Assembly (NCBI GenBank): GCA_048061315.1
Contig: JBGMRJ010000005.1
Span: 1 to 57,153, forward strand
Source: Gammaproteobacteria bacterium
GTDB taxonomy: Bacteria; Pseudomonadota; Gammaproteobacteria; UBA6429; Thiohalophilaceae
Direction: 5' to 3'
Length of the DNA stretch: 57,153 nt
Each line of letters starts with the position of its first letter. Within the stretch, counting starts at the first letter, position 1. The notes under the pieces were generated by a model, which was given only the letters and a program-made list of their open reading frames with translations, did no database searches and had not been told where the DNA came from. Both the position numbers and the translations under genes were made by a program. Shown here piece by piece: positions 47,293-57,063 of the stretch.

Positions 47293-48570
47293 ATGAATAT
47301 TAATCAACAACATCAAAATCGTATTTTGTTGATTGCTCCCCATGGTAGTTATCGTACTTTTGCATTTATTAATGCTGCTCGTCAAAAGGGAATTGAGGTG
47401 TTAATTGCATCTGAAGGAAAACATTCTGTTGTAAGCGCTTATTCTGAAGGATTGCACATTAAATTTGATGAGCCAGATTTAGCGATTAAAAAAATGTTGC
47501 ACGAGGCATCAAAAAACCCATTTACTGCGGTTATCGGAACAGATGATTCTACCACTGAGCTTGCCGCTAAAGTATCGAAGATTTTAGGTCTTGAGCATAA
47601 TGAACCAATGTCAGTTGAAATTGCGAAAAGAAAAGATCTGGCTAGGACATGTTTACGTGATGCCGATGTTAAAATTCCAAATTTTGTTATTATCAATATT
47701 GCTCAAGATAGTGTTGAGCAGATTTCTAATATTAAATTTCCAGTTGTTGTAAAACCGATTGGCTTATCAGGAAGTCTGGGTGTTATTCGTGTTGATGATG
47801 AGCAAGCATTAGAAAAGACATGCCGTCGAGTTGCAACAATAATACGACAGGATAAAAAATTATCTGCTGAAAATTACCAATACTTGTTACTAGAAGAATT
47901 TATTGCAGGTGATGAAATTGCAGTCGAGGGAATTTTAATAGATGAAAAATTCACCCTTCTTAGTATTTTCGATAAACCGGACCCACTTAACGGACCTTAT
48001 TTTGAAGAAACGTATTATATTACCCCTTCAAAATTAACCGAGTCGCAGCAACAAGAATTAATAGCAACATTACAATCAGCATGTGATGCTTATGGTTTAC
48101 GGCATGGACCCATTCATGCTGAATGTCGTATAAACGAAGACGGTATCTGGGTTATTGAAATTGCAGCCCGTACTATTGGTGGCCTGTGTGGACGATTATT
48201 ACAATTTGGAACCGGACTTAGTTTGGAAGAATTGGTTCTAGCTCACGCGATAGGGGAATCAATACCAACGATTGAACAGTTACCACATGACAAAGCATCG
48301 GGTGTTTTAATGATACCGATACCGAAGCATGGCATTTTAAAACGGGTGGAAGGCTTATTAGCGGCACAAAATATTCCACTGATTGATGATGTTAGTATTC
48401 AAATTCAGGAAGGGTATGAAGTGATACCCTTACCTGACAACTCAAGTTATCTTGGGTTTATATTTGCATCCGGTAGTTCAACTCAGGAAGTGGAACAGGC
48501 ATTACGAAAAGCACATGAGTGTTTAAATATTATTATTGCACCGTTACTTTTTAAAGCCAACGTGGCATAA
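47293..48570 (+). CDS. ATP-grasp domain protein (carboxylate-amine ligase type)
   Basis: 425 aa. The KPIGLSGSLGV, EEFIAGDEIAVEG and HAECRI...VIEIAART segments follow ATP-grasp topology. Confidence 0.7.
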   Translation: MNINQQHQNRILLIAPHGSYRTFAFINAARQKGIEVLIASEGKHSVVSAYSEGLHIKFDEPDLAIKKMLHEASKNPFTAVIGTDDSTTELAAKVSKILGLEHNEPMSVEIAKRKDLARTCLRDADVKIPNFVIINIAQDSVEQISNIKFPVVVKPIGLSGSLGVIRVDDEQALEKTCRRVATIIRQDKKLSAENYQYLLLEEFIAGDEIAVEGILIDEKFTLLSIFDKPDPLNGPYFEETYYITPSKLTESQQQELIATLQSACDAYGLRHGPIHAECRINEDGIWVIEIAARTIGGLCGRLLQFGTGLSLEELVLAHAIGESIPTIEQLPHDKASGVLMIPIPKHGILKRVEGLLAAQNIPLIDDVSIQIQEGYEVIPLPDNSSYLGFIFASGSSTQEVEQALRKAHECLNIIIAPLLFKANVA

Positions 48571-48595
48571 AAATGAATTCTTTTAGGAAAATATT

Positions 48596-49690
48596 ATGAT
48601 CCAGATGTCAACAACGAACAAAATGGATAATTCGGAGAAATCTGAAAACCCGCAATACAAATTAATTGAGACCGGCTTACAAGAGAAAATGGACGATGGC
48701 ACAACGCGATGTAACTTGTGTTTATGGCGTTGTCGGTTACGACACGGCCAACGTGGATTTTGTCAGGCTCATGTTAATCGACACGGTACATTATATAATT
48801 TATCGTATGGCATAATTTCAGCTATTGAAATCGGGAAAATTGAAGATAAACCGGTAAAACATTTTCAGCCTGGAACCAAAATTATGTCTATTGGCAGTTA
48901 TGGCTGTAGTTTTCGCTGTGATGGTTGTCATAATTTAACGATATCCTGGGGGACGCAAACGCTGGATGAACTCGCAAAAGGAATTTCAACAGAGGCTTTT
49001 GTTTCTCCCGAAGAAATTGTTGCAACTGCATTACGCCATAAAGTGCAAGGGATTGCATTTACCTATTCTGAGCCTGCAGTGTGGCTAGAGTATGTTATCG
49101 ATGTGGCAAAATTTGCCCGGCAAGCCGGATTATATTTAGTTTATGTTTCCAATAGTTTTGTAACTGACGAAGCGCTGGAATTAATGGCTCCCCACATTGA
49201 TGTATTGTGTTCCGATGTTAAAAGTCTGGATAATGATTTTTATTATGATATTTGTAAAAAAGCCAAAGTGTCTGAAATATTGGGCTCGATTAAAAAAGCT
49301 CATCAGCTAGGAATGCATGTTGAAACGCGAACTAATATAATTCCGGGTAAAAATGATAATCTGGAAATGTTACGAGAAACTGCAATCTGGATTCGTGATA
49401 ATCTTGGTGCGACAAGTCCCTGGCACATCACCCGATTTTTCCCGGCTTTTAAATTAAGTCATATACCGGCAACACCCAGTGAAATCATGTGGCAAGTGCA
49501 TGATGTTGCTCGCGAAATTGGTTTAACTAATGTTTATGTTTATGATGATAAAGGCTGTGATTGTGCTGATAGTAATTTACCGGTGTCGACTTTTTTACAA
49601 GGTGATGAAAACTCAATTCACCAGGTTAAAAAATGCGTTGCAGAGTGTTGTGGCGACGATGGTATATTACTCAAAAAATATGAAGAATAA
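48596..49690 (+). CDS. Radical SAM enzyme of the PflA-like / AmmeMemoRadiSam-system type
   Basis: N-terminal Cys knuckle RCNLCLWRCRLRHGQRGFCQ, radical SAM motif GCSFRCDGCHN, and an extra Cys-rich C-terminus (GCDCAD...CVAECCG). It begins 25 nt after the ATP-grasp gene. Confidence 0.8.
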   Translation: MIQMSTTNKMDNSEKSENPQYKLIETGLQEKMDDGTTRCNLCLWRCRLRHGQRGFCQAHVNRHGTLYNLSYGIISAIEIGKIEDKPVKHFQPGTKIMSIGSYGCSFRCDGCHNLTISWGTQTLDELAKGISTEAFVSPEEIVATALRHKVQGIAFTYSEPAVWLEYVIDVAKFARQAGLYLVYVSNSFVTDEALELMAPHIDVLCSDVKSLDNDFYYDICKKAKVSEILGSIKKAHQLGMHVETRTNIIPGKNDNLEMLRETAIWIRDNLGATSPWHITRFFPAFKLSHIPATPSEIMWQVHDVAREIGLTNVYVYDDKGCDCADSNLPVSTFLQGDENSIHQVKKCVAECCGDDGILLKKYEE

Positions 49691-49732: not shown

Positions 49733-49804
49733 GTGGTTTAGGAAAGTTTATTTAATGCATTGAATACTACCAATGCACTGCTCAGATTAATTAATAAAAA
49801 TCAA

Positions 49805-50076
49805 CACTGTTGCCCCATTTAACTTTCTAACGAGAACATAACGGAGGATATGGAACCGGTGCAGCCTGCTAAAGACCGTCTGCTTCAGGGACAGCCCAGG
49901 CTGCCCTCTCTTACTTCGCAATTCACCTTGTGAAGCAGTCGAGCGGCCAGGGATGGCGAATAGCGAGTCTTTAGCAGGCTGCACCGGTTTCATGTCCGGA
50001 TTGCACCATTTGACTTAAAACGTATGTACAGCCTATGTTTAAACTACTTTCGTTTAAAGTTAACGGGACAGTAGTG
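49805..50076 (+). repeat. Structured GC-rich repeat element, copy A (MITE-like or unannotated structured RNA); strand inferred from G-U pairing
   Basis: Shares terminal inverted repeats, a 31-bp stem (49846-49876 with 49967-49997), an 8-bp apical stem and an identical 28-nt bulge with copy B. It carries a 43-nt apical insertion relative to copy B. Confidence 0.8.
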
Positions 50077-50506: not shown

Positions 50507-51991
50507 TCAGGATGAACAGCTAACCGCAACTGAGTTGGCCCAATTGGGCGGCACATCTGCATAATGCTGCATATCAGGATGTTCATCATAAGGATTTTGT
50601 AATACCGTTAATAAGCGATCTATTTCTGAATAATCTTTTTCGTCGCGAGCTTTCCGAATGGCTATTTCGGCAATATAGTTTCTCAATATAAATTTTGGAT
50701 TACAGGAATTCATTGTTATTTTACGTTTCTGATCATTTGAATTTTCCTGTTTTAATCTGGCGCAGTATACATTAGCCCATTCGTCCCATGCCGCAATATC
50801 AATAAAGTCATCGCGAATTCCGTTATTATCGTGAATGTTGTCACTTGAAAAATTACTCAGGGAACGAAAAAAACGTGTGTAGTCACTGCCATTTTTTTCC
50901 AGTAATGCCAGTAGTGTGTTAATTAATTTTAAATCATTATTTTCGGATTGGCTAAATCCGAGTTTTTGTTGCATTAAAAATACATATTCATTGATAAAGG
51001 CTTTTTCGTATAAAGCTAAACATGATTTTGCATCATCAATTGTCATTAATGGCAGTAATGCCTGAGCTAAACAACTTAGATTCCATAATCCAATATTGGG
51101 TTGTTCTTTAAAAGCATAACGACCACTGTGATCTGAGTGGTTACAGATAAAATTCGGATCATATTTTTCGAGAAATCCAAACGGACCATAGTCCAGGGTT
51201 AATCCTAAAATTGACATATTATCAGTATTCATAACGCCGTGTGCAAAACCCACGGCTTGCCAGTGTGCGATTAATTTGGCAGTTCGAATAACAACTTCAC
51301 TAAGCCAATCGACATATTTTGAAGTATTGTTTTTAATGTCAGGAAAATAATGGTTTATGGTGAAATCTGCCAGTGTCTTTAGTTGTTCATGTTGATCCCG
51401 ATAATAAAAAATTTCAAAACTTCCAAAGCGAATGTGGCTTGGTGCCATCCTGATTAAAAAGGCACCTGTTTCTATTGTTTCACGATAAATTTCATCATCT
51501 GATCCAATGATACACAATGCTCGTGTCGTATCGATGGATAATCCAGCCATTGCTTCACTGCACAAATATTCACGTATGGTTGAGCGTAATACCGCACGGC
51601 CATCGCCATCGCGTGAATAAGGGGTTAAGCCTGATCCTTTTAATTGCAAGTCCCAATGTTCACCTCGGTTATTGATTACTTCCGTTAATAAGATTGCGCG
51701 GCCATCACCTAGTTGCGGGTTATAGCCTCCAAATTGATGTCCTGAATATAACATGGCTAGTGGATCAGTATGAGGAAAGGGCTTTTTGGCTGTGATACAA
51801 TCGATGAAATCCTGATCGGGTATGAAACTCTGATCAAGATCGATTAACCCGGCAGCCTGTTGATTAAAGCTCACTAAATAATGGGGTAATTTAAACGGCG
51901 TTGGTTTGACATTAGTATGAAACTGATTCGATAATCTTCCAAAGCGATTATCAAATTTTAAATTAAGAAATTGTTGTAAGTTATCAGACAT
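50507..51991 (-). CDS. selO: Protein adenylyltransferase SelO (YdiU)
   Basis: 494 aa. The QLGDGRAILL, HGVMNTDNMS and DYGPFGF motifs are those of the SelO pseudokinase-fold AMPylase. Confidence 0.9.
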   Translation of the reverse strand: MSDNLQQFLNLKFDNRFGRLSNQFHTNVKPTPFKLPHYLVSFNQQAAGLIDLDQSFIPDQDFIDCITAKKPFPHTDPLAMLYSGHQFGGYNPQLGDGRAILLTEVINNRGEHWDLQLKGSGLTPYSRDGDGRAVLRSTIREYLCSEAMAGLSIDTTRALCIIGSDDEIYRETIETGAFLIRMAPSHIRFGSFEIFYYRDQHEQLKTLADFTINHYFPDIKNNTSKYVDWLSEVVIRTAKLIAHWQAVGFAHGVMNTDNMSILGLTLDYGPFGFLEKYDPNFICNHSDHSGRYAFKEQPNIGLWNLSCLAQALLPLMTIDDAKSCLALYEKAFINEYVFLMQQKLGFSQSENNDLKLINTLLALLEKNGSDYTRFFRSLSNFSSDNIHDNNGIRDDFIDIAAWDEWANVYCARLKQENSNDQKRKITMNSCNPKFILRNYIAEIAIRKARDEKDYSEIDRLLTVLQNPYDEHPDMQHYADVPPNWANSVAVSCSS

Positions 51992-56286: not shown

Positions 56287-56808
56287 GTGAACTCTATGTT
56301 TCAGCAATTTATTGTAATGCTTGCTATTTTAACGGGTTCAGTATTGTTATTACCTAATGCACTCGCTGACGAATCTTCTGATGTGAAAATAACAGAAACT
56401 GAAACTTTCGTTGAGTATAAAATTAATGGGTTTTATGCTGACATTCGTGATGATGTTGAATTATCAATTACGGGGACTGGAATTAAAATTAATACCATTG
56501 CACACACCGGTGACATGCTCATTCGAACCGCAAAAGATGTCGGTGCTACTAAAGTAATTTATAAGCATGCTGAGGCTTTTGAATTTTGTTCGGCAACAAT
56601 ATCACGAGCAACAATGGAGGCCGATTTCAGAAATTTTATGTTTTGCCCTTACATTATTTACGTTTATCAATTATCTGGCGATAAAGATAAAGAAGTAGTC
56701 TATGTTACTTATCGTCGCCCTACATACGGTAAAAATAAAAAATCCAATGAAGCGTTACAATCGGTTGAGAAATTATTAAAGGGTATTATTTCAGAGGTTT
56801 TACCTTAA
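56287..56808 (+). CDS. Exported DUF302 domain protein
   Basis: Signal peptide. The core FEFCSATISRATMEADFRNFMFCPYIIYVYQ parallels the DUF302 pattern (..CNP......l...p.....lPC.v.Vy). Confidence 0.55.
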   Translation: MNSMFQQFIVMLAILTGSVLLLPNALADESSDVKITETETFVEYKINGFYADIRDDVELSITGTGIKINTIAHTGDMLIRTAKDVGATKVIYKHAEAFEFCSATISRATMEADFRNFMFCPYIIYVYQLSGDKDKEVVYVTYRRPTYGKNKKSNEALQSVEKLLKGIISEVLP

Positions 56809-56816
56809 TTTATTAT

Positions 56817-57043
56817 TGTCCCGTTAACATAACAAGATATTGATAAAACTGAAGCTTATGACTACGTTTGAAATGATTGCGACATCACCGGACATGAAAC
56901 GGGTACAGCCTACTAAAGACTCGCTATTCGCCATCCCTGGCCGCTCGACTGCTTCATCCTTGAAGCAGACGGTCTTTAGTAGGCTGTACCCGTTCCATAT
57001 CCTGTCTTTATGTGCTCGTTGAAAAGTTAACGGGACGGCAGTG
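56817..57043 (-). repeat. Structured GC-rich repeat element, copy B (inverted relative to copy A)
   Basis: Perfect 11-bp terminal inverted repeats GTCCCGTTAAC (56818-56828) / GTTAACGGGAC (57026-57036). The 31-bp stem pairs 56890-56920 with 56972-57002. The 28-nt bulge is identical to that of copy A. Confidence 0.8.
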
Positions 57044-57063
57044 ACCTTAATAATTAAAATAAT

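Follow-up and report, generated by a model that had tools for sequence, protein, structure and literature searches.

The window analyzed here, a stretch of 57,153 nucleotides of gammaproteobacterial DNA, contains two inverted copies of one small element, which we identify, with little doubt, as a MITE carrying a structured module of the TwoAYGGAY/YPAL type. TwoAYGGAY has been in Rfam since 2010 without an assigned function: together with the YPAL/RU-2 repeats and the Ysr224 entry, from which it is catalogued separately, it shares a single three-way-junction module, borne by mobile elements. As the best overall explanation, which we hold to be reasonably probable, the MITE carries TwoAYGGAY cargo whose motif strand would act as a putative CsrA clamp.

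The feature is real, and was read correctly in the original prediction, apart from some corrections reported below. The two segments are indeed inverted copies of one element (Table 1), joined by the repeat pairs I1 (69 nt, 96%) and I2 (47 nt, 91%), with a mean column identity of 82% over the whole element in the pairwise alignment of copy A with copy B. The predicted long stem is present in both, as repeat I4 in copy A (31 nt, 94%) and I3 in copy B (34 nt, 91%). Direct reading also recovered the 8-bp apical stem CTGCTTCA/TGAAGCAG of both copies and the 28-nt segment TCGAGCGGCCAGGGATGGCGAATAGCGA, the same in copy A (49939-49966) and, as reverse complement, in copy B (56921-56948), along with the three compensated differences between the two long stems and the two sites where one strand has G-U and the other A-C. 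Both copies are GC-rich, as had been noted: 0.535 at 49800-49999 versus 0.30-0.34 in the flanks for copy A, 0.43 versus 0.33 for copy B. The start of copy B, previously placed at 56817, had to be moved to 56811, the run 56811-57043 being the one flanked by a duplication. No copies other than A and B were found within the window by filter-free cmsearch with our covariance model R1.

Table 1. Parts of the two window copies, and adjacent inverted pairs of modules found at other loci. Positions of copies A and B refer to the window, those of pairs to the locus named.
Feature	Position	Strand	Evidence
Copy A, full MITE, 272 bp	49805..50076	+ (motif strand)	repeats, alignment, duplications
Copy A, model R1 match of 114.7 bits	49839-50006	+	cmsearch
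Copy A, left TIR CACTGTTGCCCCATTTAAC, degenerate: 3 substitutions and 1 inserted base against consensus	49805..49823	+	
Copy A, right TIR GTTAACGGGACAGTAGTG, 1 mismatch to consensus	50059..50076	+	
Copy A, P1 5' arm, 31 nt	49846..49876	+	repeat I4, fold
Copy A, P2 hairpin: CTGCTTCA, GGGA, 39-nt insertion (49892-49930), TGAAGCAG	49880..49938	+	
Copy A, junction and P3: UCGAGCG, GCCA-GGGA-UGGC, GAAUAGCGA (28-nt "bulge" of the original prediction)	49939..49966	+	
Copy A, P1 3' arm	49967..49997	+	repeat I4
Copy B, full MITE, 233 bp	56811..57043	- (motif strand)	repeats, TIRs, duplications
Copy B, module: RF01731 TwoAYGGAY, 45.6 bits; model R1, 132.6 bits	56883..57009	-	Rfam, cmsearch
Copy B, P3 hairpin GCCA-GGGA-UGGC, second CANGGANG site	56930..56941	-	reading, fold
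Copy B, P2 hairpin CUGCUUCA-AGGA-UGAAGCAG, first CANGGANG site	56949..56968	-	reading, fold
Copy B, TIR, 5' side of motif strand, CACTGCCGTCCCGTTAAC, 1 mismatch	57026..57043	-	
Copy B, TIR, 3' side of motif strand, inner 11 nt perfect, 4 transitions in outer 7 nt	56811..56828	-	
Copy B, target-site duplication, left, ACCTTAATT, including the TAA stop of ORF 56287-56808	56802..56810		
Copy B, target-site duplication, right, ACCTTAATA, 8/9 identical to left	57044..57052		
Adjacent inverted pair, L001	6197-6328/6362-6490	+/-	
Adjacent inverted pair, L062	12829-12960/12993-13121		
Adjacent inverted pair, L109	243-376/410-538		
Adjacent inverted pair, L037	5179-5308/5364-5505		
Adjacent inverted pair, L017	1089-1217/1262-1392		
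Further loci with adjacent inverted pairs: L007, L011, L022, L107, L125, L138			

Neither window copy has a transposase beside it, in agreement with what had been stated: genes around them encode a radical SAM enzyme, a pentapeptide-repeat protein and SelO, and there is also a 173-aa ORF without a Pfam match, whose positional counterpart in a syntenic locus, L145, described below, is annotated DUF302. The selO gene (50507-51991, minus strand), located between the pentapeptide and lpxA-like genes, is absent at the syntenic position of L145, a one-gene indel. An ATP-grasp ligase gene, followed by the radical SAM gene, occupies 47293-49690; the name "AmmeMemoRadiSam system radical SAM enzyme" is given to proteins closely homologous to the radical SAM protein, and the nearest relatives are uncultured gamma-proteobacteria of hydrothermal vents. 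No record was found for two window proteins in an exact-protein look-up.

More than 20 relatives of the window's type have in common 18-bp TIRs, CACTGCTGTCCCGTTAAC ... GTTAACGGGACAGCAGTG, from whose consensus the termini of copy B depart by 1 and 4 mismatches and those of copy A by 5 (left) and 1 (right). The repeats of copy B had been described as perfect over 11 bp, which is true of the inner 11 nt, while the outer 7 nt are degenerate on one side. A search for target-site duplications revealed 9-bp direct repeats, matching at 8 or 9 positions, in 12 of the 21 full-length copies (examples are ATACCACAT, TTTAGCTTT and ACAATATGT). Copy B is among these: its duplication, ACCTTAATT/ACCTTAATA, matches at 8 of 9 positions and overlaps the stop codon of the upstream ORF. 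In copy A, with its decayed left TIR, only 6 of 9 positions match. The syntenic locus L145, on a hydrothermal-vent metagenome contig, is without a copy at either site; it shares with the window the gene order ATP-grasp, radical SAM, pentapeptide, LpxA-like, FabA, FabB, Na/H exchanger, DUF302, with 86% identity between the radical SAM proteins, and its intergenic DNA is too diverged for an exact empty site to be mapped.

The same TIRs also enclose other sequences. The element at L024:6435-6666 features a different long hairpin (GCGAGCGATAGCGCGGCAATCTTG...) and its own 8/9 duplication, and a derivative at about 3400-3540 of L020 has the module deleted: the TIRs thus constitute a mobility chassis, and the structured part its cargo. 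Another site with the same 18-bp TIRs and a different long hairpin is L024:1-90. An autonomous parent IS, or a transposase gene with the same termini, was found neither in the window nor in the 149 loci or viral contigs, where a scan for the terminal repeat gave 0 matches. Inverted pairs of modules, 33-190 nt apart, are frequent, with partners often coming from different subfamilies (Table 1), which suggests insertion beside existing hairpins, as reported for YPAL targets.

Relatives were collected by searches of increasing sensitivity. A 20-nt piece of the core matched 24 loci in species-representative genomes, with up to 10 copies per genome. All hosts of these loci are metagenome-assembled genomes, with gamma-proteobacterial labels except for one Woeseiaceae bin; the labels include Thioalkalispiraceae, Thiohalomonadales, Legionellaceae, Chromatiales, Erwinia and one unclassified bin. 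A looser pattern matched at least 120 metagenome stretches: about half of the matches listed are true copies, the remaining ones being chance occurrences in GC-rich coding DNA, told apart by their lack of hairpins. Model R1, built from 59 copies, recovered about 90 copies, 82 of them unique, including divergent ones which contain neither search pattern. BLAST gave no match of copy B to plasmids, or of an Erwinia-type copy to E. coli genomes, and a full-text literature search with the core and terminal-repeat sequences returned nothing relevant.

Read 5' to 3' on the motif strand, the module is composed of the P1 5' arm (about 31 nt), CGU, the P2 hairpin with a GGA loop, (U)CGAGCG, the P3 hairpin (GCCA-NGGA-UGGC), GAAUAGCG(N) and the P1 3' arm, that is, a three-way junction closed by P1, the conserved junction reading CGU ... 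CGAGCG ... GAAUAGCG. The fold is far more stable than that of dinucleotide shuffles (z of -10.3 for copy B and -8.5 for copy A), and in both copies the motif strand is more stable than its complement by 5-10 kcal/mol. In the alignment of 24 sequences 96% of the cells are paired, with double changes at 35 of 44 pairs and, within the 31-34 bp P1 stem, at 30 of 31; none of 500 shuffles matched the observed values, and pairing dropped to 31-43% when partners were slid by 1-3 columns. Covariation extends to P3, as seen in divergent copies and in YPAL (GCC/GGC, UAC/GUA, CAC/GUG). Maintenance of the pairing by selection is therefore strongly supported.

Entropy, as computed over 21 full-length copies, is low in the TIRs, the basal part of P1, the junction and the loops; the spacers vary, as does, with compensation, the middle of P1. 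The notion of a hypervariable P1 was rejected, its entropy being no higher than that of the spacers, which looks like ordinary compensated drift. Two features of the original prediction need revision here. The loop of the P3 mini-hairpin, taken for a GNRA type, reads NGGA among relatives (GGGA, UGGA, AGGA, CGGA), and the apical loop, supposed to vary freely, keeps its GGA without exception among the 24 aligned sequences and almost always in the wider family. The invariance of the junction is partly a product of construction, the search patterns having fixed 20 nt in the first scan and 19 nt in the second; what persists in pattern-independent copies is CGU before P2, CGAGC(G/A), the ANGGAN loops and GCG before the P1 3' arm. 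One argument for a constraint acting in place on the core is offered by a single locus, copy A, where TIR and duplication have decayed by about 25% and the 28-nt core is without change. The 39-nt insertion in the apical loop of this copy defines a conserved sub-lineage, being found also in loci L059 and L093: the small hairpin inside it covaries (CAGC/GCTG versus CAAC/GTTG), and the predicted fold of copy A has the insertion paired with the first GGA, which it would thereby mask. This sub-lineage has still transposed, as L093 features a 9/9 duplication.

From the two window copies it had been argued that G-U pairs on one strand, corresponding to A-C mismatches on the other, mark the plus strand of copy A and the minus strand of copy B as the one read as RNA. 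This strand call is backed by the whole family. In per-sequence folds of the 82 unique copies, the motif strand contains 229 G-U pairs versus 12 A-C single mismatches, and the antisense strand 84 versus 93; G-U pairs exceed A-C mismatches on the motif strand in 75 of the 82, and the motif strand is the more stable in 70, by a mean of 6.9 kcal/mol. Folding of individual sequences was preferred to counting on the MAFFT alignment, which proved too noisy because subfamilies misalign. Selection is on one strand, family-wide.

Comparison with Rfam, which had been proposed as a check, showed that the structured RNA, initially thought unannotated, is already catalogued: copy B matches RF01731, TwoAYGGAY, with 45.6 bits (E = 1.6e-6) in a 281-nt scan, above the curated gathering threshold of 43. 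Two relatives also lie above it, L065 with 47.4 bits and L104 with 43.6 bits, and more distant subfamilies fall below. Copy A has no match to RF01731 at E <= 10, being missed by the model because of the conserved 39-nt insertion in its apical loop. The full 57-kb window, scanned at Rfam gathering thresholds, gave 0 matches, in contrast to the 281-nt scan of the same sequence, since copy B was lost to the speed filters: borderline true members can be hidden by them. The cmscan alignment of copy B to RF01731 deletes the lower stem of the second hairpin, which marks it as a short-P3 variant. Its loops are AAGGAU and AGGGAU; family-wide they are ANGGAN, with GGA kept and the Y positions not strictly so. 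TwoAYGGAY belongs to Rfam clan CL00106, the clan which cmscan gives for E. coli CsrB.

TwoAYGGAY was described by Weinberg et al. 2010 as having two AYGGAY loops and an often very large P1, with stems of about 24 bp; it came from human gut samples, Clostridiales and gamma-proteobacteria, and several copies from Psychromonas ingrahamii are present in the authors' alignment (PMC2864571). A 2025 preprint calls the motif "relatively unexplored", and we found no experiments on it in the searchable literature. The window element is a short-P3 sub-family of this motif, borne by a MITE with TIRs and duplications, a location not described for TwoAYGGAY in the accessible literature. The refuting condition initially posed, under which a MITE and an RNA role would exclude each other, is a false dichotomy. 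Of the two readings offered, a structured RNA and a MITE-like element, the evidence backs both at once: covariation on one side, and TIRs, duplications and absence from a syntenic relative on the other.

A related module is found in Yersinia. The 168-nt RU-2 repeat of Y. pestis, as reported by Delihas 2007, contains ...GTAAAG CGT CCGCGCC-AAGGAT-GGCGCGG CTCGAGC CTACA-TGGA-TGTAT TTACGGCGT CTTTAC... (PMC2759123), a layout which matches the window core: CGT, P2 with an AAGGAT loop, CTCGAGC, P3 with a CATGGATG loop, and GCGT. Model R1 matches a 100%-identical YPAL copy of Y. pseudotuberculosis over its full length (31.7 bits, E = 4e-8), and the Ysr224 model (RF02770) matches the opposite strand of the same copy with 133.9 bits (L148 1527-1667, NZ_AP028969.1). 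Ysr224 is thus the antisense strand of YPAL/RU-2, whose sense strand bears the TwoAYGGAY-like module. The TwoAYGGAY and Ysr224 entries and the YPAL repeat appear never to have been connected before. According to the reviews by Delihas, YPAL elements are mobile, lack terminal inverted repeats, make duplications of 3-26 bp and insert near dyad symmetry; they are reported to be co-transcribed with upstream genes, and may affect transcript stability (PMC2229807). YPAL-like copies, with 75% identity, were also observed on large plasmids of Klebsiella, Citrobacter, E. coli, Shigella, Pantoea and Enterobacter. One of them, L149 1501-1664 (E. coli plasmid NZ_CP067312.1, 71600-71763), has an IS26 transposase gene at a distance of about 1.2 kb; about 16 other plasmids contain such copies, most of those listed being from wastewater isolates.

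Both hairpin loops of the module read CA-N-GGA-NG, with the GGA triplets about 23 nt apart. Nearly all 82 unique copies keep the GGA in both loops, the preceding base being free (A, C, G or U). The GGA loops match CANGGANG, which makes two sites per module. They also match the consensus of the high-affinity CsrA/RsmA site, A/UCANGGANGU/A, reportedly defined by Schubert et al. 2007. They agree, too, with the Rfam 12 report, where the CsrA site is described as a short GGA-bearing hairpin that generally comes in pairs (PMC4383904). [quoted passage not shown] The geometry of two GGA sites, held by a conserved junction on a long helix, is plausible for one CsrA dimer.

In the explanation which we favour, the element is a non-autonomous DNA transposon, moved in trans by a transposase making 9-bp duplications. 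Its motif strand would be transcribed, probably by read-through from neighbouring genes, and a single dimer of the global regulator CsrA/RsmA would be clamped between the two GGA hairpins. The module may thereby work as a small decoy for CsrA or offer it a local landing site, and the long P1 helix would in addition provide the host transcript with a stable 3' hairpin. The CsrA mechanism is, in our judgement, a serious possibility, somewhat short of probable. In consensus scans no suitably placed sigma-70-type promoter upstream of the module exceeded chance, and the element showed no terminator. Among co-directional contexts, 20 copies have the same orientation as the flanking genes and 20 the opposite one, with no bias. 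Given the lack of an internal promoter and of an orientation bias, an RNA role is something we infer. Gene 3' ends are favoured, 15 copies lying between convergent genes versus 6 between divergent ones. Relative to both ORFs beside it, copy B lies in antisense orientation, so that read-through there would yield the non-motif strand. Ysr224, which models the opposite strand of YPAL in Yersinia, also counts against the CsrA reading, as do the small number of GGA sites, two per element where sponges of the CsrB type have many, and the predicted pairing of the first GGA with the insertion of copy A; no literature linking YPAL to CsrA was found. No csrA gene is present in the sequence examined, an absence that is uninformative.

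The main competing explanations differ in the molecule on which the structure would act. An ordinary MITE, whose palindromy is kept at the DNA level only, for example by hairpin-templated quasi-palindrome correction, and which has no functional single strand, would agree with the clear MITE nature of the element, with the missing promoter and orientation bias, and with a P1 no more variable than unstructured spacer. Such a mechanism is strand-symmetric, however, and the excess of wobble pairs over A-C mismatches, 229 to 12 on one strand only, counts against a purely double-stranded DNA explanation; moreover, the unpaired asymmetric junction and both GGA loops are conserved like the TIRs while spacers drift, unrelated chassis (YPAL, Legionellaceae and Erwinia-type elements) bear the same core, and the 28-nt core of copy A is intact between ends decayed by about 25%. 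We consider this explanation very unlikely. As DNA hairpins tolerate G-T wobbles, the strand asymmetry would also fit a single-stranded DNA fold with a role in mobilization or spread, its GGA loops and junction being recognized by a transposition or host replication protein. Conservation of the core, comparable to that of the TIRs, and the frequent occurrence of modules in adjacent inverted pairs speak for it, as does YPAL, with its variable duplications, lack of terminal repeats and targeting of dyad symmetry (PMC2229807). Nevertheless, same-TIR elements with other or no cargo have transposed: the one at L024:6435-6666, with its 8/9 duplication, has moved without the module, which is therefore not needed for TIR-based mobility. 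In addition, the motif strand is unbiased with respect to GC skew (26 versus 36), and copies A and B, 7 kb apart, lie on opposite strands of a region where skew is mostly positive and cumulative skew is rising. A role as single-stranded DNA thus seems unlikely to us.

At the RNA level, the element might simply be a generic stable hairpin at mRNA 3' ends, an exonuclease barrier or stabilizer whose loops have no protein partner. The preference for gene 3' ends (15 convergent versus 6 divergent contexts), the insertion of copy B at a stop codon and the reported co-transcription of YPAL with upstream genes, with possible effects on transcript stability (PMC2229807), are all consistent with such a role, and the high stability of both strands, -79 and -68 kcal/mol, would explain the absent orientation bias. 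The conserved CANGGANG loops, the junction and the strand asymmetry are nonetheless left unexplained by it, and we grant it a small, though real, chance of being right. Self-cleavage, as in a ribozyme, is brought to mind only by a hammerhead-like three-way junction and by an HDV-like segment. The latter is AUGGCGAAU, 9 nt, which we take to resemble the HDV J4/2 segment. Rfam scans up to E = 10 returned no ribozyme family, the element lacks the hammerhead core CUGANGA, and an HDV-like ribozyme would need a P1 substrate strand beyond the 31-bp helix and C residues in L3, neither of which is present; we regard a ribozyme as extremely improbable. A retron msr/msd RNA, an integron attC site, a sigma-54 promoter and a group II intron domain V were also considered and rejected, being unfit in topology or sequence and without Rfam support.

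Returning to the MITE with a putative CsrA-clamping cargo, a broader and rather doubtful extension would have the two-site module captured repeatedly by unrelated mobile chassis, namely the TIR MITE, YPAL in Yersinia, and the repeats of Legionellaceae, Erwinia and many uncultured gamma-proteobacteria, and spreading as a CsrA decoy or landing pad. If this were true, transposition would rewire which transcripts join the Csr/Rsm regulon, and the total CsrA-titrating capacity of the cell would change. More generally, if CsrA binds and insertion alters the regulation of neighbours, sites of post-transcriptional regulation would be spread by way of MITEs. The contribution of the present analysis lies in connecting TwoAYGGAY with YPAL and Ysr224, and in demonstrating that the module is mobile cargo, which explains both the multi-copy distribution of TwoAYGGAY and its long closing stem.

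Among known systems, TwoAYGGAY is resembled by the window element in the two GGA terminal loops, the very long closing P1 and the occurrence in gamma-proteobacteria. The second hairpin, P3, is however of 4 bp, where the Rfam consensus has about 15 bp; the loops are ANGGAN rather than strictly AYGGAY, and copy A, like many relatives, falls below threshold. With YPAL/RU-2 the element shares the core order CGU, P2, CGAGC, P3, GCG, as well as the nature of a small mobile intergenic repeat near gene 3' ends; in contrast, YPAL/RU-2 has no TIRs, duplications of 3-26 bp and an unrelated P1 sequence, and the window copies, because of their 18-bp TIRs and 9-bp duplications, are not filed as YPAL proper.

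The likeness to sRNAs of the CsrB/RsmZ type lies in GGA triplets within hairpin loops matching CANGGANG, and in the same clan, CL00106. Those sRNAs, however, are encoded by single-copy genes, each equipped with a promoter and a terminator of its own and with many GGA sites, whereas the window element is mobile and multi-copy, contains two such sites and shows no detectable promoter. The Correia/NEMIS, ERIC and RUP repeats are similar in size (about 100-270 bp), in having TIRs and duplications, in their intergenic location and in the long stable hairpins that their transcripts form, as a transcript of the window element would (PMC2229807); unlike the window element, they lack a conserved asymmetric junction with two loops resembling protein sites.
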